Assembly (NCBI GenBank): GCA_023205875.1
Contig: CP060765.1
Location: forward strand, 1 to 64,000
DNA length: 64,000 nt
Direction: 5' to 3'
Origin: Chloropicon primus
Taxonomy: Eukaryota
Below the pieces are notes generated by a model. It searched no databases. It worked only from the letters and a program-made list of their open reading frames with translations, and was not told the origin of the DNA. The translations under genes and the position numbers were made by a program. Positions 4,354-54,741 of the stretch are shown one piece after another. Numbering within the stretch: the stretch's first letter is position 1; each line of letters opens with the position of its first letter.

Positions 4354-4613
4354 CGAGACCTACGTACGTCTTCCCCCTTCGTCGGCAGGCTGCCGACGAG
4401 TAACGCTCGCCCTCGCTCCTTCAAAGGCGGGGGTTTCGGCCGTTCCATTCCAATCCCACTCTGGTGGGGCGATACGGTAGGATCACGAGAAGGGGGGGGG
4501 GGTGGGGCGGGCGCGTCAGGAAGTGCGAGGCTAAGCTCAGTTGAAAACATATGGAGAGTATACATATCGAGCAACGTAAGGCCCTAACTTAGTGGCACTA
4601 AGCGGCAGCTAAG

Positions 4614-5678: not shown

Positions 5679-5904
5679 CCTAAAATCCTTCCTAACCCCT
5701 CACATCCCTGCTTGTGCGATGCCGTCAACGTCACGTCACTATCGAATCAAGCCAAAGCGCTCCCGTCGCCTTCAGCCGTTTGGTTTTACCTTCGCTCGCC
5801 CCAGGTAGGAGATGACATCGTTTGGTTTGGGTGTCCAAAGAGGGACGGAGGTGTTAAGACCTGCTTCTATTCTGTAGTACACGTCGTATTTCAAAACAAA
5901 ACAA

Positions 5905-7056: not shown

Positions 7057-7403
7057 CCTCCCCTTGTCTCGTCTCGTTCGTTCCCGCGCGATGCCACGAC
7101 CCACGTCTCTCCAAGTTCTCCCCCGGGCGTTCCTTTCGCTCCCTCTCCCTCTCCCTCTCCCTCTCCCTCTCCCCTCCTCTCCCTCGCTGCCGCCGGGCGT
7201 TACCAGCGGGGCGCCCGTGGAGCGACGAGAATTGAGAATGAGAGTGAGATCCAATGCCCCCTCTGGCTGGCTGCTGGCCGACGAAGAGGAAGAGGAAGAG
7301 GAAGGCGGAGGGCGAGGGGGGTAGGAGGACGAGGACGAGGACGAGGACGAGGACAAGAACGTAACGCTGGACGGTGGGCGCTGGGCTAACTCGAGGAGAG
7401 GAG

Positions 7404-16791: not shown

Positions 16792-19700
16792 ATGAGGACG
16801 AGGAGGCAGAGGCAGCTGGACGAGGAGGCGAGCGTCGGGGTGGAGGGCAATAACGAGAACAGCGGGGTTGTGGGTCACGAGGTGGCGGCGACTCCGTTGA
16901 GCAAGAAGGATATGCTCGCGCAGTGGAAGAGGACGCAGCTGGAGACGCCGAGGAGGGCGGCAGGGGACGGACAAGTCCTTGACGGCCTCGCTTCCCTGAA
17001 CGGAAAGGCGACGAGGGAGCCCCTCGGACAGAGGGACTTGAACCTCAACTCCTCCCTTGAGCAGATCCTGTCGTCCCAGCAGAAGAAGGAGGCCAAGTCA
17101 AGCAAGCTCGCGTGGATGGAGGGAAGCAACGAGAACGGCGACCTTCCTGCTTTCACCACCCCCTCGAGGGGGAAGCAGCAGACGGCCTCCCAGGGCAACG
17201 GGCCGAGCATGGTGGACCTCAAGGCGAGGGTCGATGTGATCCGCCGCGAGAGCATCATGAGGGACGTCAGGAGGGAGAGCATGAGCGGAATGAACCCCGC
17301 AACCGGCCTGTCCTCGCTTCTTCCGCAGACCCCAAACAGAAACCTCGCTGCCATGAACGCGAGCGCCGGCGTCGGGGCTCTCGGGGACCTCTCCATGAGC
17401 TTCCCCGGCTGCCTGAGCGCGGCCATGGCTTGCTTTGACGAGGAGACGTTCGTGAAGGAGTGCAAGGCGGCGCTGCAGTGTAAGATCAGATCCAGCAGGC
17501 AGAACCCGGAGACCCAAAGGGACGAGGCGGTCACGATCATCAAGTCCCTGAGGAGGTGCCTGAAGACCATGTTTTCCAAGAAGGACGCGCTTTCCAAGGC
17601 AACCGTGCAATTCGAGGACGAGGTCTCTCAAATGATTGCTGAGATGACGCTCAAGATGCAGACGGAACTGGACAGCTCCAGGCAGCAGTCCCTGCAACAG
17701 ACGAAGGAGCTCTTCAAGGATCTCAAGGACGGGGACGCAGGCGACAACTCCGAGATGTTCAACGAGCGCATGAGAAAGCTCGAGACGCTCGAGCAGCACC
17801 TTCAGAAGTGTGAGAAGGAGCTTGAGAGCGAGCGCTCTGGAATGAGGGAGGATGAGAGGAAGAGAGCCGTGGCGGAGGCCCAGTCCAAGCTTAACCGCTC
17901 GATGTCCGAAGTCGAGAAGAGGCAGTCCCAGCTCTCCATCAGAGAGGCTGAACTCAAGGAGAGGAGGCTTGAATGGCAGAACATGGAGAAGGAGTACAAA
18001 CTCGTCGCGGAGGAGGCTGAGAAGGCCAAGCAAGAGCAGAAACAGATTGAGGAGCAGAACAACTTTTTGCAGAAAAAGTGCACTAGCCTCGAATCCGATC
18101 TCATGAAGATCCAGGAAGAGCTCAGCGAGTCAAAGGACGAGGAGTTCAATGCGCAGCAGGCTTGCTCCTCCCTCCAGGAAGCCCTCGAGACCGAGAGGGC
18201 TGCCTTCCTTGAAGAGCAGAAGGAACTCGCTGATAAGAAGGAGGTGGAAATGAAATCTCTCGAAGAGCAGTTGTTCGCTCAGAAGGAACAGGAGATCAAG
18301 GAGGTGGAGGCCCAGATGAGCGAGGAATCTTCTAAACTCTTGCTTTTGGAGCGTCAAACTCACGAGAAGGAGCAGGCGGAGCAGTTGGCGGAATTCGAGG
18401 AGAGGCTTCAGAGAACGGTCGACAACGCAACCGCTGAGGTGAAGTCAACCATGGAGCAGGACTTTGCGACAGAGCTCAAGGCATTGACTGAGCAACACAC
18501 AGCTGAGCTGGAGGACACCCTTCAGGCCACGCGCTCTGAGATGTCCAACAGATTCTCCCAGGAGAACAGCAGTGCCCTTGACCAACAAAAGGAGACGATG
18601 TTGGCTGAATTCAACCAGACAATGGATGACAAGTTGGCTGAGCAGAAGTCCCAATTGCAGTACACATTCAACGCCGAAGTGGATCTCATGAAGGATACAT
18701 TTGAGGAAGAGAAGGCTGCGTTGCAGAAGAGTCTTTCCCAGAAGGCCGAGGAGGAGATGCTTGATGCTTTGTCCTCTCAGGAGAGCGAGTTGAAGGCCCA
18801 GGCTCAGAGCGAGCTTGAGTCCTCCCTCGATGCGCAGATGGAATCTCTCAAGGCAGACTTTGCGAAGGAGCTTGAGCAGGCCTTGGCTGATCAGAAGCTT
18901 TCCCTTTCAGAGTTGTCTTCCAACGAGATGTCTGAGATGCTCCAGAACCAGAAGGAATCCCTCGAGGCCTTTGCTACTGAGCAGATGGATAAGGCCCTTG
19001 CCGAATTGACTGAGCAGCTTACGTCTGAGAAGAACGCTGCCCTTTCTGCGCTCCAGGAGACCCTCGAGCAGCAGTCTAGGGAGGCCCTCGTGAAGGCTGT
19101 TGGTTCCAAGACATCTGAGGCCGAGGCTGCCCTCTCATCCATGAAGGAGGAGTACGCCAACGAGGTCACATGCTTGAAGGAGGAGCACGCCAACGAGGTC
19201 ACATGCTTGAAGGAGGAGCACGCCAACGAGATCACATGCTTGAAGGAGGACCTTACCCAGGCCGCCGCTGAGGAGAAGGCCCGCGTCATTGAGTTGGAGA
19301 GATCCAGCGCTGAGGCGAAGCTCTCTGAGGCCAAGGTTGCCTTCGAGACTCAGGCCATCAAGGACAGAGATGTTGCTGTTTCTGAGATGAAGCAGGCCTT
19401 GCAGACTTCTTTTGATGAGAGAATCCAGCTTGCCAAGGATTCCTATCAGCAGGAGAAGATCAAGCTGTTGTTCGAGCAGAAGCAGGTGGTTGAAAAGACC
19501 ATGGGCAGCAAGACCAAGGATGCGCTCAAGGAGCAGGAGTCCGAATTGAGGCAGGAGTTCGAGGATGAGCTGAACAGTGCTCTTTCCAGACAAAAGAAGG
19601 AGCTTGAGACCTTTGCTGCTGAGCATGAAACTGATACCATTTCTTCTTTGAGAAAAGAGTTGTTGTCTGAGAAGAACGCTGCCCTTTCTGCGCTCCAGGA

Positions 19701-22700
19701 GACCCTCGAGCAGCAGTCTAGGGAGGCCCTCGAGAAGGCTGTTGGTTCCAAGACATCTGAGGCCGAGGCTGCCCTCTCATCCATGAAGGAGGAGTACGCC
19801 AACGAGATCGCATGCTTGAAGGAGGACCTTACCCAGGCCGCCGCTGAGGAGAAGGCCCGCGTCATTGAGTTGGAGAGATCCAGCGCTGAGGCGAAGCTCT
19901 CTGAGGCCAAGGTTGCCTTCGAGACTCAGGCCATCAAGGACAGAGATGTTGCTGTTTCTGAGATGAAGCAGGCCTTGCAGACTTCTTTTGATGAGAGAAT
20001 CCAGCTTGCCAAGGATTCCTATCAGCAGGAGAAGATCAAGCTGTTGTTCGAGCAGAAGCAGGTGGTTGAAAAGACCATGGGCAGCAAGACCAAGGATGCG
20101 CTCAAGGAGCAGGAGTCCGAATTGAGGCAGGAGTTCGAGGATGAGCTGAACAGTGCTCTTTCCAGACAAAAGAAGGAGCTTGAGACCTTTGCTGCTGAGC
20201 ATGAAACTGATACCATTTCTTCTTTGAGAAAAGAGTTGTTGTCTGAGAAGAACGCTGCCCTTTCTGCGCTCCAGGAGACCCTCGAGCAGCAGTCTAGGGA
20301 GGCCCTCGAGAAGGCTGTTGGTTCCAAGACATCTGAGGCCGAGGCTGCCCTCTCATCCATGAAGGAGGAGTACGCCAACGAGATCGCATGCTTGAAGGAG
20401 GAGCACGCCAACGAGATCACATGCTTGAAGGAGGACCTTACCCAGGCCGCCGCTGAGGAGAAGGCCCGCGTCATTGAGTTGGAGAGATCCAGCGCTGAGG
20501 CGAAGCTCTCTGAGGCCAAGGTGTCCGCAGAGTTGCAGGCTGCCAAGGACAGAGCTGATGCCCTTGGCAACATGAAGGAATCCATGGAAGCCGCCCTTGC
20601 TGAACAGGTTGCTGCTGTTGAGGCCACATGCGAGAGCGCCAAGGAGAAGGCCCTTGAGCAGCAAAAGCTTATGCTTGAGCAGGAGGGAGCCAGAATGCTT
20701 TCTGAGGCCTTGTCCAAGAAGGAGAGTGAGCTTGAGCTTGAGCACAACACCAGCCTGCAGAATGCCTTGGAGAAGCAGAGGATCGAGATTGAAGATAGGA
20801 ACTCTGTTGAAAACACTGGATCCATGTCTGAGCTCCGCAAGACGCTTGAGGCTGAGTTCAAGGAAAGGCTTACAAGCAACCTGCATGAACAGCAAGCCAA
20901 GTTGATGCATGACTTTAACATGAAGTTGGAGGCGGAACTGAAGGGGCAAAAGTTTCAGCTTGGACAGCAGCATCAGCAGGATCTCGATGATATGATCTCT
21001 AACTTGGAGAGAGAGATGAAGGATACATTTGAGGAAGAGAAGGCTGCGTTGCAGAAGAGTCTTTCCCAGAAGGCCGAGGAGGAGATGCTTGATGCTTTGT
21101 CCTCTCAGGAGAGCGAGTTGAAGGCCCAGGCTCAGAGCGAGCTTGAGTCCTCCCTCGATGCGCAGATGGAATCTCTCAAGGCAGACTTTGCGAAGGAGCT
21201 TGAGCAGGCCTTGGCTGATCAGAAGCTTTCCCTTTCAGAGTTGTCTTCCAACGAGATGTCTGAGATGCTCCAGAACCAGAAGGAATCCCTCGAGGCCTTT
21301 GCTACTGAGCAGATGGATAAGGCCCTTGCCGAATTGACTGAGCAGCTTACGTCTGAGAAGAACGCTGCCCTTTCTGCGCTCCAGGAGACCCTCGAGCAGC
21401 AGTCTAGGGAGGCCCTCGTGAAGGCTGTTGGTTCCAAGACATCTGAGGCCGAGGCTGCCCTCTCATCCATGAAGGAGGAGTACGCCAACGAGGTCACATG
21501 CTTGAAGGAGGAGCACGCCAACGAGATCACATGCTTGAAGGAGGACCTTACCCAGGCCGCCGCTGAGGAGAAGGCCCGCGTCATTGAGTTGGAGAGATCC
21601 AGCGCTGAGGCGAAGCTCTCTGAGGCCAAGGTTGAGTTTGAGGAATTGGCTGCCAAGCAAAGGGCTGATGCCCTTGGCAACATGAAGGAATCCATGGAAG
21701 CCGCCCTTGCTGAGCAGGTTGCTGCTGTTGAAGCCACATGCGAGAGCGTCAAGGAGAAGGCCCTTGAGCAGCAAAAGCTTATGCTTGAGCAGGAGGGAGC
21801 CAGAATGCTTTCTGAGGCCTTGTCCAAGAAGGAGAGTGAGCTTGAGCTTGAGCACAACACCAGCCTGCAGAATGCCTTGGAGAAGCAGAAGCTTGACATG
21901 AGTGCTGAAGCTGAGGCGCAAATGGCAAAGGCTCTTGAGGACCAGAAATCTGAGCTGGACAACAACAGCAGTGCGGAGTTGGAGAAGGAGCTTTGCAACT
22001 TGAGGGACCAGATGCAATGCGAAATGGAGAACCTCCTGGCCAAGTCAGAGGCTTTGTATGAGAACAAGTTGAAGGAGCTTGGCCAGAAGCAGAAGCTTCT
22101 GTTGGAGGAGACCTTGCAATTCAGAGAGGATGAGCTCAGAGCTGAAGCCGAGGCATATCACAGCGCTGAGGTTGAGAGCCTGAAGGCCAGGCTTGAGAGT
22201 GACTTCCAGGCGGAGAAGAACACTGCCCTCGAAGAGCTTAAGGTCGAATTGAACGAGATGTTCTCCACTAACATGGAAAGCAAGGTGAAGGAGCTTACCG
22301 CTGAGATGTCTACGGCCCATGAGACTGCCTTGAAGGGCCAGAAAGATGCTTTGATGTTGGAATTCAATGAAAGCAAGGAGAAGGCCCTTGCTGAACTCCA
22401 GGCCAAGCTTGAGTCTGAGGCGAAGAAGGACAAGGAGTCTGCCCTTGAGGCGCTGAAAAAGGAACTCTTCGACAGCACCATCAGCGTCTTGAACAAGAAG
22501 ATTGAGGAGCTTGAGGAATCCAGAACACAGCACGCTGCTGAGCTTGACAAGATGAATGTGCGCCTCCAGGGTGCTCTTGCTGCCCTGCAATCTGAGAAGG
22601 AGGAGGTTTCCTCCCTCCAGCAGCAAGCGGCAGAGATGACCAAGGACCATGTTCTCAAGGTTGACGAGCTCACAGCTAGTTTGGACGATGTTCGCAAGGA

Positions 22701-24120
22701 CAGGCAAGAGTTCTTGAACAAGCTTGAAGTTCTTAACGCCCAGATGTCCGCTTTGAAGGAAGCCCAAACCAAGAACAAGCAGCAGCAGATGGAGCAGATC
22801 AGCGATGCGTCCAAGGCCATGGAGGAGAGCAGGCAGCAGGTCCTCAGCCTTGAGGATGACATCGAATCTCTGAAGCTTGAGATCAAGAACAGGGAGGGCA
22901 GAATCTCTGAGGTGGAGGGACAGCTTCTGGAGGCCGAGTACGTCAGGAGACAGCTCCATAACCAAATTCAGGAGCTCCGCGGTAACGTCAGAGTGTTTTG
23001 CAGGGTCAGACCCTTGAAGGAGCAGTTCACCGAGGCATCTGTTGCTTATGTGGACGATGTCTCCATGAAGCTGACTGCGCCAAGTACCAACAATGGCTCT
23101 CTCAACCCTGAGACCAAGGACTGGCAGTTTGGATTCGACAAGGTGTTCACTGATAAGAGCAGCCAGTCGGATGTTTTCAGTGAAGTCTCCCAGCTTGTGC
23201 AGAGTGCCCTTGACGGTTACAAGGTCTGCCTCTTTAGCTATGGCCAAACTGGAAGTGGAAAGACCCACACTATGCTTGGAGGCCAAGGAGACTCCAAGGG
23301 AATCATCGCGAGGTCCGTTGAGAAGATCATTGAGGCTTCCGAACGCCTGGAGAAGAAGGGCTGGAAGTATTCCATGGAGGCCTGCTTCATCGAAATTTAC
23401 AATGAGACTGTGAGAGACCTTCTGCAGCCTGGAACGGCTCATTCTCAGAAGTATTCCATTCAGAACCCAAAGACCGCAGGCGGTTGCCCCTTCGTGGCCA
23501 ATGTCTTGAGGGAGCCCGTGGACTCTGTGGAGGCCGCGAACTCGCTCGTTAGGAGGGCCTCAGCCGCAAGGGCGGTTGAAGCCACCCAGATGAATGACAC
23601 CAGCAGTAGGAGTCACACCATCTTCATGCTTTACATCACTGGTATCCATAAGGATGCCGGGCAGAAGCTTGAGGGCTGCTTGAACCTCGTTGATCTCGCA
23701 GGTAGCGAGAGGGTGTCAAGGTCTGGTGCAAGTGGCGCGAGGCTCAGAGAGACCTGCGCCATTAACAAGAGTCTGAGCAGCTTGGGAGATGTCTTCACCG
23801 CTATTGGAGCGAAGCAGAAGCACATTCCTTTCAGAAACAGCAAGCTTACACATCTGCTTGCACCTTGTCTGTCCGGCGATGGAAAGACTCTGATGTTTGT
23901 CAACATCAGCCCGGAAGTGAAGGATGCCGAGGAGACTCTCTGCTCCTTGAGGTTTGCGAGCCATGTGAATGCTTGTGAGCTTGGAAGGGGGGCAAGGCGC
24001 AACGTTAAGGCTTTGGAGGAGACCACAAACAAGCCCCCACCAACGCCAGGTAGCATGAAAAAGCCCGCGAGGCGTGTCGCATCCAGGACGGCAACTCGGG
24101 TGTCTAAAGCACGAATTTAA
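16792..24120 (+). CDS. Kinesin-14 family motor (C-terminal motor domain) with a very long coiled-coil stalk
   Basis: 2442-aa ORF; neck RRQLHNQIQELRGNVRVFCRVRP; P-loop GQTGSGKT; SSRSH; DLAGSER; HIPFRNSKLT. Confidence 0.95.
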   Translation: MRTRRQRQLDEEASVGVEGNNENSGVVGHEVAATPLSKKDMLAQWKRTQLETPRRAAGDGQVLDGLASLNGKATREPLGQRDLNLNSSLEQILSSQQKKEAKSSKLAWMEGSNENGDLPAFTTPSRGKQQTASQGNGPSMVDLKARVDVIRRESIMRDVRRESMSGMNPATGLSSLLPQTPNRNLAAMNASAGVGALGDLSMSFPGCLSAAMACFDEETFVKECKAALQCKIRSSRQNPETQRDEAVTIIKSLRRCLKTMFSKKDALSKATVQFEDEVSQMIAEMTLKMQTELDSSRQQSLQQTKELFKDLKDGDAGDNSEMFNERMRKLETLEQHLQKCEKELESERSGMREDERKRAVAEAQSKLNRSMSEVEKRQSQLSIREAELKERRLEWQNMEKEYKLVAEEAEKAKQEQKQIEEQNNFLQKKCTSLESDLMKIQEELSESKDEEFNAQQACSSLQEALETERAAFLEEQKELADKKEVEMKSLEEQLFAQKEQEIKEVEAQMSEESSKLLLLERQTHEKEQAEQLAEFEERLQRTVDNATAEVKSTMEQDFATELKALTEQHTAELEDTLQATRSEMSNRFSQENSSALDQQKETMLAEFNQTMDDKLAEQKSQLQYTFNAEVDLMKDTFEEEKAALQKSLSQKAEEEMLDALSSQESELKAQAQSELESSLDAQMESLKADFAKELEQALADQKLSLSELSSNEMSEMLQNQKESLEAFATEQMDKALAELTEQLTSEKNAALSALQETLEQQSREALVKAVGSKTSEAEAALSSMKEEYANEVTCLKEEHANEVTCLKEEHANEITCLKEDLTQAAAEEKARVIELERSSAEAKLSEAKVAFETQAIKDRDVAVSEMKQALQTSFDERIQLAKDSYQQEKIKLLFEQKQVVEKTMGSKTKDALKEQESELRQEFEDELNSALSRQKKELETFAAEHETDTISSLRKELLSEKNAALSALQETLEQQSREALEKAVGSKTSEAEAALSSMKEEYANEIACLKEDLTQAAAEEKARVIELERSSAEAKLSEAKVAFETQAIKDRDVAVSEMKQALQTSFDERIQLAKDSYQQEKIKLLFEQKQVVEKTMGSKTKDALKEQESELRQEFEDELNSALSRQKKELETFAAEHETDTISSLRKELLSEKNAALSALQETLEQQSREALEKAVGSKTSEAEAALSSMKEEYANEIACLKEEHANEITCLKEDLTQAAAEEKARVIELERSSAEAKLSEAKVSAELQAAKDRADALGNMKESMEAALAEQVAAVEATCESAKEKALEQQKLMLEQEGARMLSEALSKKESELELEHNTSLQNALEKQRIEIEDRNSVENTGSMSELRKTLEAEFKERLTSNLHEQQAKLMHDFNMKLEAELKGQKFQLGQQHQQDLDDMISNLEREMKDTFEEEKAALQKSLSQKAEEEMLDALSSQESELKAQAQSELESSLDAQMESLKADFAKELEQALADQKLSLSELSSNEMSEMLQNQKESLEAFATEQMDKALAELTEQLTSEKNAALSALQETLEQQSREALVKAVGSKTSEAEAALSSMKEEYANEVTCLKEEHANEITCLKEDLTQAAAEEKARVIELERSSAEAKLSEAKVEFEELAAKQRADALGNMKESMEAALAEQVAAVEATCESVKEKALEQQKLMLEQEGARMLSEALSKKESELELEHNTSLQNALEKQKLDMSAEAEAQMAKALEDQKSELDNNSSAELEKELCNLRDQMQCEMENLLAKSEALYENKLKELGQKQKLLLEETLQFREDELRAEAEAYHSAEVESLKARLESDFQAEKNTALEELKVELNEMFSTNMESKVKELTAEMSTAHETALKGQKDALMLEFNESKEKALAELQAKLESEAKKDKESALEALKKELFDSTISVLNKKIEELEESRTQHAAELDKMNVRLQGALAALQSEKEEVSSLQQQAAEMTKDHVLKVDELTASLDDVRKDRQEFLNKLEVLNAQMSALKEAQTKNKQQQMEQISDASKAMEESRQQVLSLEDDIESLKLEIKNREGRISEVEGQLLEAEYVRRQLHNQIQELRGNVRVFCRVRPLKEQFTEASVAYVDDVSMKLTAPSTNNGSLNPETKDWQFGFDKVFTDKSSQSDVFSEVSQLVQSALDGYKVCLFSYGQTGSGKTHTMLGGQGDSKGIIARSVEKIIEASERLEKKGWKYSMEACFIEIYNETVRDLLQPGTAHSQKYSIQNPKTAGGCPFVANVLREPVDSVEAANSLVRRASAARAVEATQMNDTSSRSHTIFMLYITGIHKDAGQKLEGCLNLVDLAGSERVSRSGASGARLRETCAINKSLSSLGDVFTAIGAKQKHIPFRNSKLTHLLAPCLSGDGKTLMFVNISPEVKDAEETLCSLRFASHVNACELGRGARRNVKALEETTNKPPPTPGSMKKPARRVASRTATRVSKARI

Positions 24121-44255: not shown

Positions 44256-47200
44256 ATGAGGCGCGGGACGAGCGACAGGGGAAGGTCCCTCTTCCTCTTC
44301 CTCTTCCTCTTTCTCTTTCTCTTGCTTTTCTTTTTTTGCGTCGCCGTCGTCGAAACGGCTGGAGTGGTGGAGGTTGAGGTCTACACCAACGCGGAACAAG
44401 GAGGAGTGGATGGGATCGGTGGAGAGGATGGAGGACATCCTCCTCCTCCGCCGTACTTTGGTTCGGTCGATCTGCTGATACGTAACGGGGGTTCTTCCTC
44501 CGTGGACCTCGGTGATCTCACCGCGCACTTCTTCCTCGGTGAGGACCCCTCGAACGCGCACAAGTACGACGGTTTGGTTTGGAGTGCCCTGAGGGAGACT
44601 CGCGAAGGGAGCTTCGACTTTGTGGAGGACGTGGAGGTAACGTTCACGGAGTGCCATGGGAACGCGACGTCCTGGTCCGCGGAAGCGGGGGCGAGGGTGC
44701 GCATGGACATCGCCTTTGGGAAAAGCCAACACCTTCCTCCCGCGTCTAGGGCCCTCGTGAGGACGAGGGTGACCAAGAGGGTGTGGCCGCGCGAGCCGCT
44801 GGACGATGTGTCTCCATGGTCGCATCTCCGTGAGCTGGCGAGTCCTGTCGTCTTCTCGGCCTTGGACTCCAACCAAGAAAGCATGGTGCACTTTGCCGAG
44901 AACAGGAGGGTCGTGCTGAGCGACGGCAGCGGGAAAATCCTGTGGGGGCACTACCCGTCGGGGTATGATGCCGCCAGGAGCTCCGGCGAGGAGCTGTGCG
45001 GGATGAAGAGGGGGGGCGGCACCTCCAGGAAGACCGTCGCGAATTATGCGAGGAGGAGTCTGCTGCAGAACTTCGCGCAGGAGGTGTACCTGCAGGAGTT
45101 TTCCCTGCCTTGCGAGGACATCGGGAGCGTGATCCGGATGGATTCGAGGTTTGACGAGTCGTTGCCTCAGCTTCAGTACGTGAAGCTGCTCATTTCGAAC
45201 GAAGGGGAAGCGCCAGCGAGTCTTGACGGCCTGAGGATCCCCTTCCCCTACAGGGAGCTTGGCGAGGAGCACAAGCTTGTCGCGGCATGCACCAACCCGG
45301 TGTTGCTCGGCTCGAGCATGACGAACGCTTGGAGCGACGACATCTGTGACCACATCGACATCACTGTCTCTGAGGACGAGTTCGTCGTCGAGTTCAAGAA
45401 CTTCACGCTCTGTCCGTACTGCAGAATCGACGCGTTTTCCGACGCCTTGTCCCTGTTTGCTGTGTACGATGAGCATTGGCAGCGGGTGCAGATTGAAGTT
45501 ACCCTGGGAGCCTCCAGCTGCGCGTCGTCTGGCAGCGTGGTCTCTGACCCTTCCGCGCACATGTCGACGCTTTCGGTCAATCGCGTGAAGATGGACCCCG
45601 GCAACTGCCACACCATGCTCAATGTGCATTACGGCGGAACCATCCTGAGCAAGCCAGAACTCAAAGCAAGTTCTGCGACCGAGTGCTGCGATCTTTGCCA
45701 CAAGGAGCCCACTTGTAACGTTTGGACCTGGTGTGACAGTTTGATCGGATGCTCGAATGGAGAGGAGGACAAGTGTGTGCTCAAGTATGAGGTGGAGCTC
45801 GAGCCAACAATTTTGAGCAAGGGCAAATACACGCCCTGGGCATCGGGCTACTTGGGGTTGACCCAAGAGCCTATGCGCGCACCGCCAACAACAGTTTCAC
45901 CAACGTACACCTCGATCACGTCGTCATGCACGTCTGAGATCTCGGGCTTGGCAGCGGCTTGTACGAACGGCAACATGGCGTCCTCGATGAGTGTATCCCA
46001 GTGCTGCCAGAGGATTGCCGAGACAGACAGCATGTGCTTGTGCAACAAAGATTTTGGGTTTGAGATGGCTGCGATGCAGGAATCTCTCGAGACTTTTTCT
46101 GAGAGTCAGTGTAGCCACATTCCCTGCGCCAGCAGTGCAATCGCTGCACCAATACAGCAGAAGTCTTTGGCAGGGTCTCCATTGTCCAGAAAGAGCGGTA
46201 CCGCCGCACAAGGACAGCAGGGGCAGCCTGCCAAATCCCAAGCCCAGGGCCGCGCGCCCTTGCTCCCCCCAAACTGCGGTTTGGAAAACATCAAGACCGA
46301 TCTCGTCATGGAAAGCAACAGCAATTACAACAAGATCTTCTTGGTGGGATCTCTGACCAACACCGCAAGGAGGAGCGTGACGCTCGGCGACTTCACGGTC
46401 CCTATATTCTTCAGCAGGGGCGCCAAGGGCTACGACAACAAGTGGTACAGGGCAAATCCAGATGAATTTGTGGTGGAATGCAAAGATCCTGTGATCACTA
46501 CGACCCAGTTTGGCACCGTCGAACGAAGGCGCATGAGTTGCGACAACATGAAGGTCACAGTTGACGAAGAAGGAATCCTTTTCATGCTCCGCGGCGTGGA
46601 GCTGTGCCCTGGATGCTCCATCGGAGGTTCACAAGAGATGCCTATGTGGGAGATCAGGCACGCTGCCAACTTTCCTTTGGACTTCATCCATATCAACCCA
46701 GCCTTGGCATCCAACGGCCCAATCATTGGGAAACCTTTCTGCGACACTTTTGAAGACAGTTTGGAGATTCAGGAGGCCCTTGAGATGAATCCCATGGATA
46801 TGAACGTCCAGCCCCAGGAAATTTCGGACCAGGTGTGGAGGGAGCCCTCCGACACCAATACTGCCCAAGATCTTCTGCTCGGTACTCCCACAAGCGCAGG
46901 AGGTTTGGCTGGCTCAGAACCGGGCATCGGCAATGCCGCTGCGCTCAATGTTGGGCAAAAACCGTATCAGACTGTGACCCCGGATCAGCTGCGGCTGCTT
47001 GCTCCCGGGCAAGCTGCCATGCTGCTTAAGGACATGCACCCAGCTGCGGCAGCTCAAGCTCTGGCTGGACTGCAGCCACAAGAGGCCATTCCCATTTTGC
47101 AAGCGATGTCTCCCGCTGACGCTGGGAAAATCGCAGATGCAATGCCAGGCCCAGATGTCGCTGACTTGCTGAGGTACATGCAGCCAAATGCTGCATCTCA

Positions 47201-50200
47201 GCTTGTGGCAGCAATGTCTCCCGTGGTGGCAGCGAGTGCCTTGCAGCAGCTTCAGCCTCAGCAAGCTCAGGCCATCCTTTCATTGGTGGATAACCAGCAT
47301 GCCACTAGGTTACAGAACGCGATGCCTCCAGCTTCCGCGAGTCCAGGCAGATTGTCAAGACTGCCACCTGCTCAGGCGGCAGCCTTGCTCCAGCAATTGT
47401 ACCCAGCTCAGGCCGCCGCGGCACTGAGGGGACTGACGCCTGCCCAGGCAGCTGCGATACTCGAGGTCATGCCCCCGGAGGATGCTGCCCAGATCATGGA
47501 TGTGATGCCCGGCGGGGCTGCTGCTGACTTGCTTGGGGCGATGGATCCGTACGCCGCCCAGCAGCTGTTTAGCAATATGTCTCCCGTTGTGAGTGCCGAT
47601 GCTTTGAGGCAGATGCCTCCGGAGAAAGCCAGTGCTTTGATGACTTCGACGTCTACTCCAAGTTCAAGACAACCCATAGGAGCAGGAACGCCCATAGTCA
47701 CATCGCAACAGCTTGCTGCGATGAGTCCGGCACAAGCGGCCATGGCGCTGAGGGGAATGAGTCCCATGCAAGCTGCTGAGGCCCTTGCCGGTCTCGAGCC
47801 ATGGCGGGCTGCCCCCATTTTGCAAGCACTATCTCCAACGGACGCTGGTCCAATCATGGATTCCATGCCCGGAACAGAAATTGCTGGCATACTGAGGTAC
47901 ATGGATCCTGCGGAAGCAGCAGCGCTTTTGGAGCAGATGTCTCCCGTGGTGGCAGCGAGTGCCTTGCAGCAGCTTCAGCCTCAGCAAGCTCAGACCATAT
48001 TGGGCCTCATGGACAACAGGGACGCTACGAGGTTGCAGAATGCGATGCCTCCAGCTTCCGCGAGTCCTTTGAGACTTTCGCGGATGAGCCCAGCACAAGC
48101 CGCTACCTTGCTCCAGCAATTGTACCCAACTCAGGCCGCCGCGGCACTGAGGGGACTGACGCCTGCCCAGGCAGCTGCGATACTCGAGGTCATGCCCCCG
48201 GAGGATGCTGCCCAGATCATGGATGTGATGCCCGGCGGGGCTGCTGCTGACTTGCTTGGGGCGATGGATCCGTACGCCGCCCAGCAGCTGTTTAGCAATA
48301 TGTCTCCCGTTGTGAGTGCCGATGCTTTGAGGCAGATGCCTCCGGAGAAAGCCAGTGCTTTGATGACTTCGACGTCTACTCCAAGTTCAAGACAACCCAT
48401 AGGAGCAGGAACGCCCATAGTCACATCGCAACAGCTTGCTGCGATGAGTCCGGCACAAGCGGCCATGGCGCTGAGGGGAATGAGTCCCATGCAAGCTGCT
48501 GAGGCCCTTGCCGGTCTCGAGCCATGGCGGGCTGCCCCCATTTTGCAAGCACTATCTCCAACGGACGCTGGTCCAATCATGGATTCCATGCCCGGAACAG
48601 AAATTGCTGGCATACTGAGGTACATGGATCCTGCGGAAGCAGCAGCGCTTTTGGAGCAGATGTCTCCCGTGGTGGCAGCGAGTGCCTTGCAGCAGCTTCA
48701 GCCTCAGCAAGCTCAGACCATATTGGGCCTCATGGACAACAGGGACGCTACGAGGTTGCAGAATGCGATGCCTCCAGCTTCCGCGAGTCCTTTGAGACTT
48801 TCGCGGATGAGCCCAGCACAAGCCGCTACCTTGCTCCAGCAATTGTACCCAACTCAGGCCGCCGCGGCACTGAGGGGACTGACGCCTGCCCAGGCAGCTG
48901 CGATACTCGAGGTCATGCCCCCGGAGGATGCTGCCCAGATCATGGATGTGATGCCCGGCGGGGCTGCTGCTGACTTGCTTGGGGCGATGGATCCGTACGC
49001 CGCCCAGCAGCTGCTGAACAACATGTCTCCTCTCGTGCGCGCCAATGCACTGAGGCATTTAGGCAATCCAAGCGCGGCTGGGGATCTTGCAGGGCAGGAT
49101 GGTCGATTTGGGCAAATACAGAATGACGGTGAGGTACCTATAGTGGATGCGTCTGCGATACACCTTTTTGATATCGAGAAAGCACAGCAGATAGGCACGC
49201 CGATGGACCTGAATGGCCTGACACAGCAAGAGAAGGACGCTTTGCTAGCCGAGCTCTTAGCAAGGGCTGGAAGGCCTGTTGGTTCCGTTGCCGAACAAAT
49301 AGATGTGGCAGTGGCCAACTCCGATCCCGTGACTCTTCCTCCTGGGGCGTTGGACGAACAAGCAAACGCAGAGGAAGAGGGCATCCTCATTGAGTTCTCA
49401 AGATGGGCCAAAAAGAGTGATTTGTGGGAAAAGGCTGACGCGTCAGAGTTTGAACTTTCGTCGCCAGACTACGTGCAGGGGGAAGCTGTGCTGGTTGATA
49501 GAGAAGATAGCATCGAGGCAAGACTCCCCACGAAAGTGAAATCGGTTACGCTGAAGCACAAATTGGATGCAGAGCTTGACCCTCGTACTCCCACTATTTC
49601 TACGGCGAGCGGCGAGGACTACGAGGCAGTGCTTATGGAGGATGCCACCCTGTGGCTCATTAAGGACGCCAGTTTCGACGACGTCGGGGATGCCATTGAT
49701 GGAGCCGAAGCTACTGGAATCGGTGGTGGTAAAGATGACACGGTGAGGCTTGTGAGCGACGTTTCACCCTTGCAGGCTGCGAGAGTTCTCGATTCGGTGG
49801 ATGATGCTCTCGCGGCCGACATCCTGGCGGAGATGCCCCTTGAAGATATTGCGAGGGTCATCGCATTGCTGCCTGCGGACAGAGCAAAAAGGCTGATCGA
49901 GCTGTTGCCTAAGGACAGGCAAGAGGAGCTGATCCCGTTGCTGGATGGGGTGGACGCCATCGCGTTTGAAGCCATAGCCGATTTCATGCCTTGCGAGTCT
50001 GAAAAATTCCAAGTGAGTTTGAGAAGCAAAGTGCTGAACGGGGGCACGCGGTATGGGATCACGGGGACCATCGAGAACCCCACCAATCAAACGCTTTCTC
50101 TCAAGGGCCTGGAGATCAGAGTTGGGCTCAGTCCCTGGGTGAAGGATGCCACTGGAGTGTGGGAGCGAGCCGATAACGCGGATTACACCGTGCGCTGTGC

Positions 50201-50783
50201 GTGGCTTGGGATCGGATCGGTGAACTTTTGTGACACGGCCAGCGTTGTGATGGAAAACCACACGGCTGTAATCACGCTTCAAGGCCAGCTCAGGGCCGGG
50301 GAGAAAGTCAGCGGGCCTCCTGACGGAATTCTCATGGAGGTTGGAAGGAGGGGAAGAGCCCTGGACTTGAAGAATTTGCCCCTGATCGGCGTCGCTTGCC
50401 CCGGCCAGGAGGTAGGCCAGAGCATGTCGAGGTTTGAAGCTGATCAGGTAGGCGCTGGAGACTTGGTGACAATCGATTTCTCGCCCTGGATGAGGGCCGC
50501 GGGATCAAGCACCTGGCAGCGAGGCAGTGAGGACGAGTTTTCGTTGTCCTGCAAAAGCGGCGCGGATGCCTGCCCTGGTGTAGGCCAAGCAACTCTATCC
50601 ACGTCTTCCTCGGGCCAAGCACTGGAGGCTTCCTTTGTCGCGAGTGAGCCTGTGGACATCCTCCTTACCGCGAAAGACGGCTCGGAGCTCGACTTCAGAG
50701 AGCCCATTGTCACGAGCGGGTTCGACGCTTCGGCAAAACTGGTGAACAACGGGACAGCGTGGGATATTCAGCTGTCCAAGTAA
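44256..50783 (+). CDS. Large putative secreted protein with a PAN/apple-like Cys module and long MgtE-N-like helical repeats
   Basis: ~2175-aa ORF; hydrophobic N-terminus; SATECCDLCHKEPTCNVWTWC...CVLK; repeats such as DAAQIMDVMPGGAAADLLGAMDP. Confidence 0.75.
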   Translation: MRRGTSDRGRSLFLFLFLFLFLLLFFFCVAVVETAGVVEVEVYTNAEQGGVDGIGGEDGGHPPPPPYFGSVDLLIRNGGSSSVDLGDLTAHFFLGEDPSNAHKYDGLVWSALRETREGSFDFVEDVEVTFTECHGNATSWSAEAGARVRMDIAFGKSQHLPPASRALVRTRVTKRVWPREPLDDVSPWSHLRELASPVVFSALDSNQESMVHFAENRRVVLSDGSGKILWGHYPSGYDAARSSGEELCGMKRGGGTSRKTVANYARRSLLQNFAQEVYLQEFSLPCEDIGSVIRMDSRFDESLPQLQYVKLLISNEGEAPASLDGLRIPFPYRELGEEHKLVAACTNPVLLGSSMTNAWSDDICDHIDITVSEDEFVVEFKNFTLCPYCRIDAFSDALSLFAVYDEHWQRVQIEVTLGASSCASSGSVVSDPSAHMSTLSVNRVKMDPGNCHTMLNVHYGGTILSKPELKASSATECCDLCHKEPTCNVWTWCDSLIGCSNGEEDKCVLKYEVELEPTILSKGKYTPWASGYLGLTQEPMRAPPTTVSPTYTSITSSCTSEISGLAAACTNGNMASSMSVSQCCQRIAETDSMCLCNKDFGFEMAAMQESLETFSESQCSHIPCASSAIAAPIQQKSLAGSPLSRKSGTAAQGQQGQPAKSQAQGRAPLLPPNCGLENIKTDLVMESNSNYNKIFLVGSLTNTARRSVTLGDFTVPIFFSRGAKGYDNKWYRANPDEFVVECKDPVITTTQFGTVERRRMSCDNMKVTVDEEGILFMLRGVELCPGCSIGGSQEMPMWEIRHAANFPLDFIHINPALASNGPIIGKPFCDTFEDSLEIQEALEMNPMDMNVQPQEISDQVWREPSDTNTAQDLLLGTPTSAGGLAGSEPGIGNAAALNVGQKPYQTVTPDQLRLLAPGQAAMLLKDMHPAAAAQALAGLQPQEAIPILQAMSPADAGKIADAMPGPDVADLLRYMQPNAASQLVAAMSPVVAASALQQLQPQQAQAILSLVDNQHATRLQNAMPPASASPGRLSRLPPAQAAALLQQLYPAQAAAALRGLTPAQAAAILEVMPPEDAAQIMDVMPGGAAADLLGAMDPYAAQQLFSNMSPVVSADALRQMPPEKASALMTSTSTPSSRQPIGAGTPIVTSQQLAAMSPAQAAMALRGMSPMQAAEALAGLEPWRAAPILQALSPTDAGPIMDSMPGTEIAGILRYMDPAEAAALLEQMSPVVAASALQQLQPQQAQTILGLMDNRDATRLQNAMPPASASPLRLSRMSPAQAATLLQQLYPTQAAAALRGLTPAQAAAILEVMPPEDAAQIMDVMPGGAAADLLGAMDPYAAQQLFSNMSPVVSADALRQMPPEKASALMTSTSTPSSRQPIGAGTPIVTSQQLAAMSPAQAAMALRGMSPMQAAEALAGLEPWRAAPILQALSPTDAGPIMDSMPGTEIAGILRYMDPAEAAALLEQMSPVVAASALQQLQPQQAQTILGLMDNRDATRLQNAMPPASASPLRLSRMSPAQAATLLQQLYPTQAAAALRGLTPAQAAAILEVMPPEDAAQIMDVMPGGAAADLLGAMDPYAAQQLLNNMSPLVRANALRHLGNPSAAGDLAGQDGRFGQIQNDGEVPIVDASAIHLFDIEKAQQIGTPMDLNGLTQQEKDALLAELLARAGRPVGSVAEQIDVAVANSDPVTLPPGALDEQANAEEEGILIEFSRWAKKSDLWEKADASEFELSSPDYVQGEAVLVDREDSIEARLPTKVKSVTLKHKLDAELDPRTPTISTASGEDYEAVLMEDATLWLIKDASFDDVGDAIDGAEATGIGGGKDDTVRLVSDVSPLQAARVLDSVDDALAADILAEMPLEDIARVIALLPADRAKRLIELLPKDRQEELIPLLDGVDAIAFEAIADFMPCESEKFQVSLRSKVLNGGTRYGITGTIENPTNQTLSLKGLEIRVGLSPWVKDATGVWERADNADYTVRCAWLGIGSVNFCDTASVVMENHTAVITLQGQLRAGEKVSGPPDGILMEVGRRGRALDLKNLPLIGVACPGQEVGQSMSRFEADQVGAGDLVTIDFSPWMRAAGSSTWQRGSEDEFSLSCKSGADACPGVGQATLSTSSSGQALEASFVASEPVDILLTAKDGSELDFREPIVTSGFDASAKLVNNGTAWDIQLSK
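47210..49012 (+). repeat. Intragenic 723-bp (241-aa) tandem repeat, about 2.5 copies
   Basis: Identical alternative-frame ORFs offset by 723 (47408/48131; 47801/48524). Confidence 0.92.
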
Positions 50784-51107
50784 CGCCCCCCCCTCGGACC
50801 TTTGTGTACAACAACAAGATTTTTTTCCTTCTCTTATTGATATGAACTTTGCTTGTAGTCTATTAGAGATTCTTCTTCCTTGTTACTTGATGGTGATGGT
50901 GTATCAGCCGGGGAAGGGTGAAAGAAAGAGAGATGGGTTGGACAAGAAAACGTTAAATTCATATACGTTTCAATGAGCTTTGTTTTTTTTTTACACTAGG
51001 GCCTTAGGCGGCGGCCTCCTCCTCTTCTCCTTCAGGCTTTGGTTCTCCATCCTCTGCATCCTCCTTGGCATCCGCAGCAGTCTTTGCCTTTGCTTCCGCT
51101 TCCTCCG
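50673..51107. repeat. Left copy of a direct duplication (end of the large gene, intergenic region, 3' end of RSP3)
   Basis: aaagacggctcggagctcgacttcagagagc...cctccg matches 53309-53774 apart from small indels and substitutions. Confidence 0.95.
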
Positions 51108-51261
51108 ATTTTATCCGAAAAAATATCTTTGTTCCCCTTGAAAAAATAAGCGGCCGTGACACCCTGAAGCACTGGGCGGAGTCTGGCCCCATCAAAGTGA
51201 CATCCAGGCGGGAGGCAAAGGTCAGCGCTGGGCTCTAGGACGTAAACCGCGTGGCATTCGG

Positions 51262-52839
51262 ATGAACGCTACTGCCGGCTCGCTCGGCGTCCACGACGCG
51301 GGCGGTGCGACGGATTTTGGCGCAGGTTTGAGCCTCGAAGGTGCGCGTGACAAAGCAAAGGAGGCGCTGCTCCAGTGGGAGATCGAAGTCTGCGCCGTCG
51401 CGGTGCTCATGTCAAAAAAGGGCCTGCGGGTTGTCGACGAGAGCCGCCGCCACCTAGAACTCCTCCCCCCAGATCGCTATGGGACGATCTCGTACTGGGC
51501 CAAGTGGGCGTGTGGCACGGCGCAGTTGTCGATGGCCGCTAAGATCTTCACACAAGCCGAGCTCGACGTGGAGCTCGGTGGCAGCGAGGGTGCGATGAAT
51601 GAGACCTCGCTCGGTCTGGTCCAGCCGGAATCACGGCGCTTCTCCGTCGGCGCCCACGTCCGCGTGCGCTCCGAGGCCGACTCTGTGCGTTGGCGCCGGC
51701 CGCATCTACGGACGCCTGGCTACGTCCACGGCGCGTGTGGTGTCATTGTGCGCGCCCAGGGCCCCTTCGCCAACCCGGAGGAGGTCTCCTTCTACAGTCA
51801 AGGGCCACGGAGGACCGATGCCCTCCTCTACACGGTGCGCTTCCTCCAAGCGGAGTTGTGGCCGCACTACACCGGTGGAGAGGCGGACACCGTCGATGTG
51901 GACATCTTCGAAGGCTGGCTTGCCGACGCCGAGGCCGATGACGATGCCAATGCCGGCAGCTACGACGGTGCGCCGTCTCTGTGGCGCGGCCGCGGCTCGA
52001 GCCTCGTGCGCATTCGCACAGCGGATAGTCGGAAGGCGCGGCGTGTTGGCAATGCCCAAGGCCACGTGCATCATCACTCGAGGGAGGCCGTCGAGCGCGC
52101 GGCGGTCGATCGCGAGGCAGCGCACAACAACAGGGTGGACAAGGACGGAGCATTCGCCGCCCTGCACGCTGCGACGGTGCGGCTGCTCGTGGCCAAGGGC
52201 ATCCTCGCACGCGATGAGCTCCGCGCGATGGTCGAGACGTTGGATACCATGGCGTACGGCCAGACGATGGAGGGCGCCAAACTCGTCGCGCGCGCGTGGT
52301 GCGACGAGGCGTTCAAGGCCCTCCTGCTCACGGCTCCCGCCAAGGCCATCGAGGCGGCGGGGCTCACACAGATCGTCGACGCGCGCGGTGGCATCGGCTC
52401 GACGCGTGCAGGCATCGGTCACCTCGAGTACATGGGCACAGCCTCGCGCGGTGCTCCATCGCAGGCGCTTGCGCCGATTGGCGACACGGAGCTCGTGGTG
52501 GTCGAGAACACCGACGAGGTTCATAATCTCGTCGTCTGTACCTTGTGCTCCTGCTACCCGCGCGCGCTCCTCGGGTTGCCGCCACGGTACTTCACCTCGC
52601 GCGCGTACCGTGCGCGTGCCGTCTGCGAGCCGCGCGCCGTGCTGGAGGAATTCGGGTGCGCGTTACGGCCGTCGGTTACGACCGTCCGCGTGCACGACTC
52701 CACCGCAGACGTCCGCTTCCTCGTGCTCCCCCAGCGCCCTGCGGGGACGGAGGGATGGTCGGAGGAGGAGCTGAGGCCGCTCGCGACGCGGGACTGCCTC
52801 GTCGGTGTCGCGCTGCCGGTGGTGGGTGAGCAGCGGTGA
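51262..52839 (+). CDS. Fused beta-alpha nitrile hydratase, cobalt-type signature
   Basis: Beta: GVHDAGG, SYWAKW, RFSVG..VRV, HLRTPGYVHG. His linker GHVHHHS. Alpha: GAKLVARAW.D..FK, VENTDEVHNLVVCTLCSCYP, VHDSTADVRFLVLPQRPAGTEGWSEEEL. Confidence 0.95.
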   Translation: MNATAGSLGVHDAGGATDFGAGLSLEGARDKAKEALLQWEIEVCAVAVLMSKKGLRVVDESRRHLELLPPDRYGTISYWAKWACGTAQLSMAAKIFTQAELDVELGGSEGAMNETSLGLVQPESRRFSVGAHVRVRSEADSVRWRRPHLRTPGYVHGACGVIVRAQGPFANPEEVSFYSQGPRRTDALLYTVRFLQAELWPHYTGGEADTVDVDIFEGWLADAEADDDANAGSYDGAPSLWRGRGSSLVRIRTADSRKARRVGNAQGHVHHHSREAVERAAVDREAAHNNRVDKDGAFAALHAATVRLLVAKGILARDELRAMVETLDTMAYGQTMEGAKLVARAWCDEAFKALLLTAPAKAIEAAGLTQIVDARGGIGSTRAGIGHLEYMGTASRGAPSQALAPIGDTELVVVENTDEVHNLVVCTLCSCYPRALLGLPPRYFTSRAYRARAVCEPRAVLEEFGCALRPSVTTVRVHDSTADVRFLVLPQRPAGTEGWSEEELRPLATRDCLVGVALPVVGEQR

Positions 52840-53085
52840 ACAAGCGCACGATGTGAAGAAGTGGCAAGTGCAACGCGACCTCAGACCTCAGACCTCGCTC
52901 TTGCGCGGCGCATCCTCTACCTTGGTGGACCGTCATTGACCCAAGACCAAGGCAAGAGCCTGACATAACCGTAGACACCGTAGACAGAAGACAAGGACGG
53001 ATGCTGCTGTCTTGTGTGGAAGATGGATCTCGGCACGGGCGGGTGCTGGATATTGCATGATCCTATGACTCGCGTTGTCGTGTAA

Positions 53086-53308
53086 TCCTCAATCCTGCTT
53101 GGCGATACCTTGGTGATGTGCAAGGTTTCGACCGTATTTCACATGACGGTCATTACGTTTGAGGCGCCCGAGCTGGAAGACCCTGACCTCAGCTTCCAAT
53201 ACAAGCGGGTGGTGTCCACCGATCCTGGCGTCAAGACTTTCCAGACAGGGTATTCTCCAACCACCGGCCAATACGGCGAGCTGCTGAAAGGCACGGATGT
53301 CGGATGTC
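53086..53308 (+). mobile_element. Truncated Fanzor2/IS607-TnpB-like fragment (RuvC-I region only)
   Basis: KRVVSTDPGVKTFQTGYSP matches the recalled (V/I)xxDPGxRTFxTxY RuvC-I signature; the frame is cut at the duplication junction 53309. Confidence 0.7.
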
Positions 53309-53774
53309 AAAGACGGCTCGGAGCTCGACTTCAGAGAGCCCATTGTCACGAGCGGGTTCGACGCTTCGGCAAAACTGGTGAACAACGGGACAGCGTGGGA
53401 TATTCAGCTGTCCAAGTAACGCCCCCCCCTCGGACCTTTGTGTACAACAACAAGATTTTTTTCCTTCTCTTATTGATATGAACTTTGCTTGTAGTCTATT
53501 AGAGATTCTTCTTCCTTCCTTGTTACTTGATGGTGATGGTGTATCAGCCGGGGAAGGGGAAGGGTGAAAGAAAGAGAGATGGGTTGGACAAGAAAACGTT
53601 AAATTCATATACGTTTCAATGAGCTTTGTTTTTTTTTTACACTAGGGCCTTAGGCGGCGGCCTCCTCCTCGTCTCCCTCAGGCTTTGGTTCTCCATCCTC
53701 TGCATCCTCCTTGGCATCCTTGGCAGCCTCCTCGGTGGCCTTTTCCTCCGCAGCAGCCTTTGCTTCCTCCTCCG
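53309..53774. repeat. Right copy of the direct duplication
   Basis: Matches 50673-51107; supplies the functional 3' end of RSP3. Confidence 0.95.
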
Positions 53775-54741
53775 CCTTGGCCTTTGCGATAGCAGCCTTC
53801 CTGGCATCCTCTGCCTTCTGCTGAGCGTCCAGCTTCTTCTTGAGGGCAGCCGCGACAATGCTCTTGGCCGTGTTGTACGATACCTCCATGTTTCCGAGCT
53901 GGCTCTGGGTCTCAGCAAGAAGCCAAGGCAAGAAGGTGTCCTGGACCTCCTTCTCCACCGGATCGTAAAAGTGCCCAGCCTGGTGCAAGTCCGCGAAGAC
54001 GTCCTCCACGACAGTGTCGAGGAACCCACGGGCGAAGGAAGACGCAGCAACCTTCTGCCTGACCTGGCCTTCCCTCTCCAACCTCTGCTTCTCCTGCTCG
54101 ATCCGCCTCTGCTTCTCCTCCTCCTTGCGCTTCTCGGCCGCCTCCATCCTTTGGGTGGCAATAAGCTCGGCATTTCTGATCTGCTCGAAGTTCTCCTGGT
54201 GCGTCCTCATGGCCTCGAGTTCCTCCTCTTCCAGCACCTCCATGAGCCCCTGCTCAAGCGTCTTGCCAACCAGTACCTCCAGTATGGGCTCGACCTCCAA
54301 GTCAAAGTCAAAGATCTCGCCGCTCTCTATCTGGGTCTCCATGTCCACACCCGTCTTCATCGGGATGAACCTAGGAGTCGGGGGCCTGTCCAAGAAAGCA
54401 TCCGTCTGCGTCGAGATCTCTGCCTCAGGCACAGTATCTGTGAGCTCCTCCAAGTACGCGTCCGTCTGTATATCCATGTGCCTCCTGCCGTCAATAGGCT
54501 CCGGAGTGCTCGCCCGCTTCAAAGTCTGGACGACTTTCTTGGGACGGCCAGTCGTCTCCATCAGGGGCTCCGCGGGGAGGATCTGTGCGGCGTACGTGTT
54601 TCCCCTCACAACACGGCGGTCAAACATTATGTTCGAAGGAATTCCACCCGGTTCATCACTCTCGCGGTACTTGGGCCTCCTGCGCGTGCGCACAGGCTGC
54701 GGCTCCGCCGCGTAAGCATACGTCTCCGTCGCAACAACCAT
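53650..54741 (-). CDS. RSP3: Flagellar radial spoke protein 3
   Basis: NIMFDRRVVRGNTYA; TPEPIDGRRHMDIQTD.YLEEL; TQTDAFLDRPPTP; FDFDLEVEPILEVLVGKTLEQ. Confidence 0.96.
   Translation of the reverse strand: MVVATETYAYAAEPQPVRTRRRPKYRESDEPGGIPSNIMFDRRVVRGNTYAAQILPAEPLMETTGRPKKVVQTLKRASTPEPIDGRRHMDIQTDAYLEELTDTVPEAEISTQTDAFLDRPPTPRFIPMKTGVDMETQIESGEIFDFDLEVEPILEVLVGKTLEQGLMEVLEEEELEAMRTHQENFEQIRNAELIATQRMEAAEKRKEEEKQRRIEQEKQRLEREGQVRQKVAASSFARGFLDTVVEDVFADLHQAGHFYDPVEKEVQDTFLPWLLAETQSQLGNMEVSYNTAKSIVAAALKKKLDAQQKAEDARKAAIAKAKAEEEAKAAAEEKATEEAAKDAKEDAEDGEPKPEGDEEEAAA

Follow-up and report, generated by a model that had tools for sequence, protein, structure and literature searches.

Introduction

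The closest described counterpart of the locus reported here comes from the laboratory. In the Ostreococcus tauri transformant line T3, an integrated vector is flanked by a 518-bp direct duplication together with 83 bp of filler of unknown origin, an outcome that the authors put down to repair resembling non-homologous end joining, and one Ostreococcus transformant took up 55 bp of viral origin (PMC8002553). Here, a locus of similar form was analyzed in the marine green picoalga Chloropicon primus, within a stretch of 64,000 nucleotides (assembly GCA_023205875.1, contig CP060765.1, positions 1 to 64,000; hereafter the window). In this window, 2.2 kb of foreign DNA containing a nitrile hydratase gene and a fragment of Fanzor2/IS607-type TnpB sequence lies between two direct copies of one host segment. 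Whereas line T3 contains a laboratory vector, the C. primus insert is natural, is present in both sequenced strains, and consists of an algal gene and a scrap of Fanzor sequence.

The two components of the insert also have described relatives. Fused nitrile hydratases of the eukaryotic cobalt type occur in Monosiga, Emiliania and Aureococcus, and the motif VCTLCSC has been defined for them (PMC3323583). The window enzyme likewise displays the beta-then-alpha order, VCTLCSC and a histidine-containing linker, yet it resides in a chlorophyte host and belongs to a haptophyte clade. Elements of the IS607 type with Fanzor2 combine a serine recombinase and a TnpB-like nuclease (PMC10711439). The family of the present fragment likewise has Fanzor-type domains, and one complete IS607 element (contig L005) contains a member of it, whereas the insert retains only about 49 internal codons, with no recombinase, element ends, RuvC-II/III or zinc finger. 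Furthermore, C. primus itself possesses Fanzor-type genes, approximately 25-30 of them, carried by elements that have inverted repeats and target duplications (PMC6731263, PMC12301720, PMC10711439). The resident Fanzor2* cut-and-paste elements (PMC10711439) share the host species and the RuvC-I motif with the fragment; in contrast, the fragment appears to belong to another subfamily when compared by eye with the protein rows of the supplement, and the insert has no terminal inverted repeats.

In our judgement the locus is probably best explained as follows: a chromosome break was likely mended in an error-prone manner, and in the process foreign DNA was taken in whose nitrile hydratase gene is intact and likely of haptophyte origin; the Fanzor piece likely came along as a passenger.

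Results and Discussion

Organization of the locus

The features of the locus are as follows, in window coordinates.

44256..50783, + strand: host gene of 2175 amino acids (aa) with a PAN domain and MgtE_N-like repeats, its tail lying in the left copy
50673..51107: left copy, 435 bp, with the functional 3' end of the upstream gene and a dead RSP3 tail
51074..51107: left junction patchwork, pieces of 7, 6, 10 and 9 nt matching the RSP3 tail (53750-53787) out of register
51108..51261, + strand: leader, 154 bp, the first ~45 bp AT-rich
51262..52839, + strand: nitrile hydratase, fused beta-alpha, intronless, 525 aa, GC content 0.68
52840..52983: spacer with short tandem duplications, in which Fanzor similarity was not found
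52984..53154, + strand: possible eroded Fanzor sequence in the same frame as the core, stop at 53083-53085, of borderline significance
53155..53301, + strand: internal Fanzor2/IS607-TnpB fragment surrounding the Asp-Pro-Gly motif of RuvC-I
53302..53308: tandem duplicate (7 nt) of 53295-53301 that abuts the right junction, possibly filler (weak evidence)
53309..53774: right copy, 466 bp, with a dead upstream-gene tail, intergenic DNA and the functional RSP3 3' end
53650..54741, - strand: radial spoke protein 3 (RSP3), host, 363 aa, intact

The insert occupies 51108-53308 and is flanked directly by the two copies of the host segment (435 and 466 bp). Alignment of 53309-53719 with 50673-51073 gave an identity of 97.08% across 411 columns: the initial 202 nt are identical, and beyond them the copies differ only by two substitutions and by microsatellite indels of 4 and 6 nt. 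The remaining part of the left copy, 51074-51107, is a rearranged form of 53720-53774, representing a reshuffled RSP3 tail. No third copy of the segment was found within the window. The left copy carries the final 36 codons and the stop of the 2175-aa gene, while the right copy carries the 3' end of RSP3; each convergent neighbour is completed by one of the copies, and therefore both are whole. A preliminary description of this DNA, made from the letters alone, had reported a 2.2-kb insert between long host copies, intact neighbours and a complete nitrile hydratase, all of which were borne out, the arrangement also by independent contigs and a second assembly. It was equally correct in that a duplication of over 400 bp is not a transposon target-site duplication.

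Regarding expression of the new gene, the leader contains no upstream ATG and has neither a Fanzor match nor a match elsewhere in the window; it is presumed to be a promoter and 5' untranslated region, or filler. Promoter, terminator and Rfam scans returned nothing exceeding chance. The right copy may serve as the site at which the nitrile hydratase transcript ends.

Support for the locus in independent data

Contigs from 4 of the 20 listed sequencing runs, which derive from at most three samples, were aligned to the window. All four runs show the same four differences from the window, indicating that they were not the source of its sequence. A single contig of run X1 spans 51044-53338 and crosses the left junction, on the host side of which it has 64 letters; the contigs of the other three runs begin inside the insert. 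At the right junction, contigs of all four runs extend 30 letters into the right copy and then stop, the rule for a bridge being 31 letters. This junction is crossed by the JGI proteins P0144 and P0187, which run on from the Fanzor fragment through 57 codons of the copy. Contig depth in X1 was 132 for the insert, 130 and 153 for the flanks and 214 for the repeat; in X2 the corresponding values were 123, 118 and 96, and 285. These depths are consistent with one insert and two repeat copies, it being understood that contig depth does not equal copy number.

Both the nitrile hydratase and RSP3 of the window cluster with proteins named Chloropicon primus, which identifies the host. In the second C. 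primus assembly, the nitrile hydratase (QDZ23987.1) and RSP3 (QDZ23988.1) have consecutive accessions, and this enzyme is also recorded as a complete transcript open reading frame (ORF) in the MMETSP source. In X4 and X5, two runs guessed to be RNA, contigs extend without a gap from 51131 or 51162 up to the right copy, which hints, without proving it, that the nitrile hydratase transcript ends in the duplicated host 3' region; no meaning is attached to the missing coverage of RSP3 in these runs. The insert between duplicated host segments is confirmed as real and is not an assembly artefact.

Two separate points concern the same data. The public C. primus model P0145 (53113-53428, 72 aa), in which the Fanzor fragment is spliced to the duplicated C-terminus of the upstream gene, is unsupported here, the joint appearing in none of the four runs. 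The two copies, which differ at four places in the window, yet merge into one 406-nt contig in X1 that mixes left and right alleles, suggesting recent divergence or gene conversion.

The nitrile hydratase

The Pfam beta-N, beta-C and alpha domains are all located in the single 525-aa ORF, with beta N-terminal to alpha. Alignment to solved cobalt-type enzymes demonstrated that the VCTLCSC metal site is present, and the beta-subunit arginines of DExR and HLRTPGY, which we take to have a catalytic role, are invariant in all six aligned proteins. From these features the protein is predicted to be a cobalt nitrile hydratase that, together with an amidase, would release nitrogen from organic nitriles. 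Its linker is far shorter than that of its nearest relative, P0002. Relative to the enzyme of the second assembly there are two differences (window 51593 and 52129), both amino-acid changing (A111E and N290D), whereas the two flank differences are silent. As an observation in its own right, P0003, a nitrile hydratase of the haptophyte clade that represents a cluster of five, has a fused C-terminal domain matching PF07859/PF20434, presumably an alpha/beta hydrolase; such a fusion could couple nitrile hydration to amide hydrolysis.

Donor affinity and timing of transfer

The closest BLASTP matches of the window enzyme, mostly ENA proteins, share 58-79% identity, compared with 36-51% for green-algal enzymes. 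In a tree of 34 hand-chosen proteins, the enzyme fell within a clade of 16 rows that also contains Emiliania huxleyi and Phaeocystis cordata, the branch being supported at 100/100, with P0002 (79% by BLASTP) as its sister. All six named green algae were set apart from it (97/99), and forcing the enzyme together with them was rejected by the approximately unbiased (AU) test (p 8.87e-25). A quick tree of 119 rows, from which the frameshifted P0009, P0013 and P0014 were left out, gave the same placement.

Codon usage was scored against a donor model consisting of a single contig, L001, which carries a clade relative. The enzyme scored +0.113 per codon, toward L001, as did the other L001 genes (+0.07 to +0.27, 5 of 5), while host genes scored from -0.05 to -0.30 (15 of 15). 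AGG accounts for 0.53 of the arginine codons of the host, against 0.09 of those of the enzyme. The L001 relative itself sits among ordinary chromosomal genes, including a chloride channel and an F-box protein. In the metagenome scan, 4 of 160 matched stretches were confirmed, only L001 among them falling within the clade, and a Fanzor match was absent from all four. Judged from its sequence affinities, the enzyme gene likely came from a haptophyte alga. The preliminary description had named a virus or other donor and overlooked this eukaryote-type fusion of haptophyte affinity; the foreign nature of the insert held, while direct support for a virus was absent from scans of IMG/VR.

Timing can be bracketed from published comparisons. 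File S1 of PMC12301720 lists the orthogroup of the enzyme as specific to C. primus, in both strains, relative to three C. roscoffensis genomes; the Atlantic and Pacific C. primus strains are 99.91% identical, as against 77.88% to C. roscoffensis (PMC12301720). This listing places the transfer after the species split and before the strain split. The near-identical copies and unaltered codon usage suggest that the transfer was recent, although gene conversion could mask its age.

The Fanzor2/IS607-type fragment

A full HMMER scan with the fragment produced 41 matches, comprising 38 relatives, two self-like proteins and one spurious repeat protein. The last, P0143, was the top match and was dropped, being a repetitive secreted bacterial protein. 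TnpB-type Pfam domains were present in 17 of the 22 proteins scanned. A profile of 136 relatives matched the window solely here (70.9 bits, profile positions 322-400 of 578). The firm core, 53155-53295, reached 102.6 bits, against at most 20 for eight shuffles of the adjacent spacer. The match extends to 53301, covering about 49 codons, and stops 7 nt short of the right junction. The RuvC-I-like fragment previously said to end at the junction is of the Fanzor2/IS607 type, as had been proposed, and its firm end lies slightly before that point. The core is identical to P0198 at 37 of 47 residues and outscores 10 of the 136 members; only mild decay is evident in the core, and the idea that the relic had decayed long before transfer was set aside. 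The 50 codons upstream of the core include a stop. Local tests of this region were non-significant, with 12 of 100 and 26-30 of 30 shuffles reaching the score; an anchored test was passed narrowly (6 of 300 shuffles), and intact members score far higher.

The remainder of an element was sought around this fragment. The fragment itself had no match in Pfam, NCBIfam, PDB sequences or a word-indexed protein search, and no serine recombinase, helix-turn-helix (HTH), RuvC-II/III or zinc finger was found anywhere in the window. An IS607 recombinase upstream of the nuclease was not found; the upstream ORF is the nitrile hydratase, and the insert has no other coding capacity. Nor was an element right end with a guide RNA found downstream: host DNA begins 7 nt past the fragment, and there was no match in Rfam, which may lack the family. 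Among the 25 longest of 78 inverted pairs, none joins the insert ends as terminal inverted repeats. The fragment is likely a passenger and not the vehicle, since only an internal piece is present, and the recombinase, the element ends and the C-terminal half of the nuclease are all missing.

The fragment belongs to a Fanzor2 family of 257 proteins at E 1e-20 or better. Four family-specific motifs were absent from one published set of Fanzor tables. The best solved match of two full-length members is the TnpB-like protein L79, which we take to be of mimivirus origin. The one member with DNA context lies in a complete IS607 element (HTH-resolvase followed by Fanzor2) at L005:2112-4239. L005 is filed under a bacterial metagenome-assembled genome; it contains short ORFs, three of them paralogues with RING fingers, and AT-rich spacers, and by this composition looks giant-virus-like. 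Separately, a conserved C-terminal glycine-tryptophan-aspartate motif was observed in the family (P0150-P0183 and P0191-P0300).

Probable capture during break repair

The junctions are non-homologous and accompanied by filler or slips, of which the 7-nt duplicate is a weak instance, and the host segment is duplicated, as expected of repair-mediated capture. A process that would yield this arrangement may be outlined as follows. During the first step, the chromosome would have broken near 50673, within the end of the upstream gene. During the second, the left end would have been extended by approximately 400 nt on the sister or homologous chromatid, restoring the 3' end of the upstream gene. 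Synthesis would then have slipped in the low-complexity RSP3 tail, producing the patchwork at 51074-51107. Finally, the extended end would have been ligated to foreign DNA, and the far end of that DNA, which falls in the middle of a Fanzor remnant, would have been attached to the original chromosome at 53309. Both neighbours would thereby be left whole, and the new gene would gain a host 3' region downstream. The left copy is thus probably the newly synthesised one: had the polymerase slipped ahead of the joining to foreign DNA, small pieces of the RSP3 tail, 6-10 nt long, would be expected to remain as a patchwork of this kind. A duplication-free insertion would have truncated the upstream gene, which may explain the survival of this form. 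Whether the Fanzor frame shares microhomology with the host bases that begin at 53309 was considered; such a match involves a single conserved arginine column and is not claimed.

Several points weigh against this reading. Host intergenic DNA is rich in short tandem duplications (23 in 7770 nt), so that slips at the junctions are weak evidence. No empty site was observed, and the pre-insertion state is deduced from the duplication alone. With respect to the enzyme, the AU test was run under a non-mixture model, only two named haptophytes (Emiliania huxleyi and Phaeocystis cordata) anchor the clade, and both differences between strains alter residues, their number being too small to judge selection. 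With respect to the Fanzor piece, its region has a GC content of 0.54 and a codon score of -0.188, unlike a GC-rich donor; its upstream part was non-significant in local tests, by which the insert may be composite; and the sole family member with DNA context is located in virus-like L005. Donor DNA was not found, and the enzyme gene and the Fanzor piece need not have been neighbours in one donor.

Alternative explanations

The alternative that survives best retains the same repair capture and changes the source: the DNA would have been brought by a giant virus, or would combine a gene from a haptophyte with an IS607/Fanzor2 scrap of separate, viral origin, the two having been joined at the break. 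We regard it as possible but doubtful. The complete IS607 element of L005 contains a full family member whose GC content, 0.506, is close to the 0.54 of the fragment, and these two facts lend a viral or composite origin some plausibility; the similarity to L79 and the 55-bp viral capture in Ostreococcus (PMC8002553) point the same way. Against this, scans of IMG/VR (2.9 million contigs) returned no relative, whether for the enzyme, the fragment, the alignment of the family, two full-length members or the leader, although such negatives are weak evidence of absence because the scans depend on few exact peptide patterns. Moreover, no viral gene family was found among 16 other ORFs of the window, the codon usage of the enzyme fits a cellular GC-rich genome, and the faint in-frame Fanzor trace upstream in the anchored test suits a relic eroded in place. 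A more specific version, to be considered unlikely, is that a haptophyte-infecting giant virus with IS607/Fanzor2 took the nitrile hydratase of its host into the non-phagotrophic green picoalga, where break repair fixed the gene.

Integration of a circle, composed of the insert and a piece of host DNA, through one homologous crossover would produce exactly the order segment-insert-segment with copies as similar as the 97% observed. This is improbable, as prior capture of host DNA by the circle would be required and is unexplained, a third copy was not found in the window, and the left end is a slipped patchwork of the kind expected where synthesis stopped. The circle is also unneeded, since random one-step integration of naked DNA in Ostreococcus left the same scar, with a 518-bp direct duplication (PMC8002553). 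Of the two routes offered in the preliminary description, circle recombination or break repair, the latter fits better.

Movement of the enzyme gene as cargo of an IS607/Fanzor2 transposon, or of a Fanzor-bearing DNA transposon of the alga itself, is very improbable and is largely refuted, although the family of the fragment is found in IS607 elements and C. primus has its resident Fanzor-type elements (PMC6731263, PMC12301720, PMC10711439). The window contains none of the recombinase, HTH, RuvC-II/III or zinc finger modules, the insert stops mid-gene without inverted ends, and by eye the flanking motifs are common to the fragment and its family, not to the resident proteins printed in the supplement. 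A duplication of 435 bp also far exceeds the footprints of transposases. The earlier proposal that a Fanzor2/IS607 element delivered the cargo is not upheld, only about 49 internal codons being present, cut mid-gene and without recombinase, element end or terminal inverted repeat.

An assembly chimera with a contaminating haptophyte, or vertical inheritance with loss in relatives, is scarcely credible: no single run contig covers the whole locus and the right junction is reached by only 30 letters in those runs, but the insert has a depth like its flanks in X1 and X2 with the repeat higher, the same neighbours occur in the second assembly, the JGI proteins cross the right junction, and both tree and codon usage reject green-algal ancestry.

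Other features of the window

At its start the window has a telomere array made up of TTTTAGG-type units, after which come subtelomeric repeats of 198 bp (1-1184). Genes for two glycosyltransferases, a sulfotransferase and a sugar-phosphate transporter form a subtelomeric cluster at 2041-8405. Large internal tandem repeats are observed in a kinesin gene (16792-24120, period 576 bp) and in the host gene upstream of the insert (47049-49032, period 723 bp).

Conclusions

No literature pairing Chloropicon with nitrile hydratase was found, though subscription papers and unsearched supplements might still mention the transfer, and nitriles are unmentioned in the main text of two C. primus genome papers. 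The case itself appears to be unreported and is exceptionally well preserved, while nitrile hydratases of eukaryotes, Fanzor2 remnants and capture through repair are each of a known kind.

Transfer between eukaryotes is usually inferred from trees alone, after the scar of entry has eroded. Here, the junctions, the duplicated target and the foreign codon usage can still be read, and they match an experimental scar in a related picoalga. A laboratory route of integration is thereby linked to natural transfer, which makes the mechanism directly testable. Furthermore, the Fanzor passenger points to a large Fanzor2 family. If viral delivery were true, the locus would document, base by base, how a virus moved a working nitrogen-scavenging enzyme from one algal supergroup to another. 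For C. primus, the enzyme may provide an ability to scavenge nitrogen that its sister species lacks.

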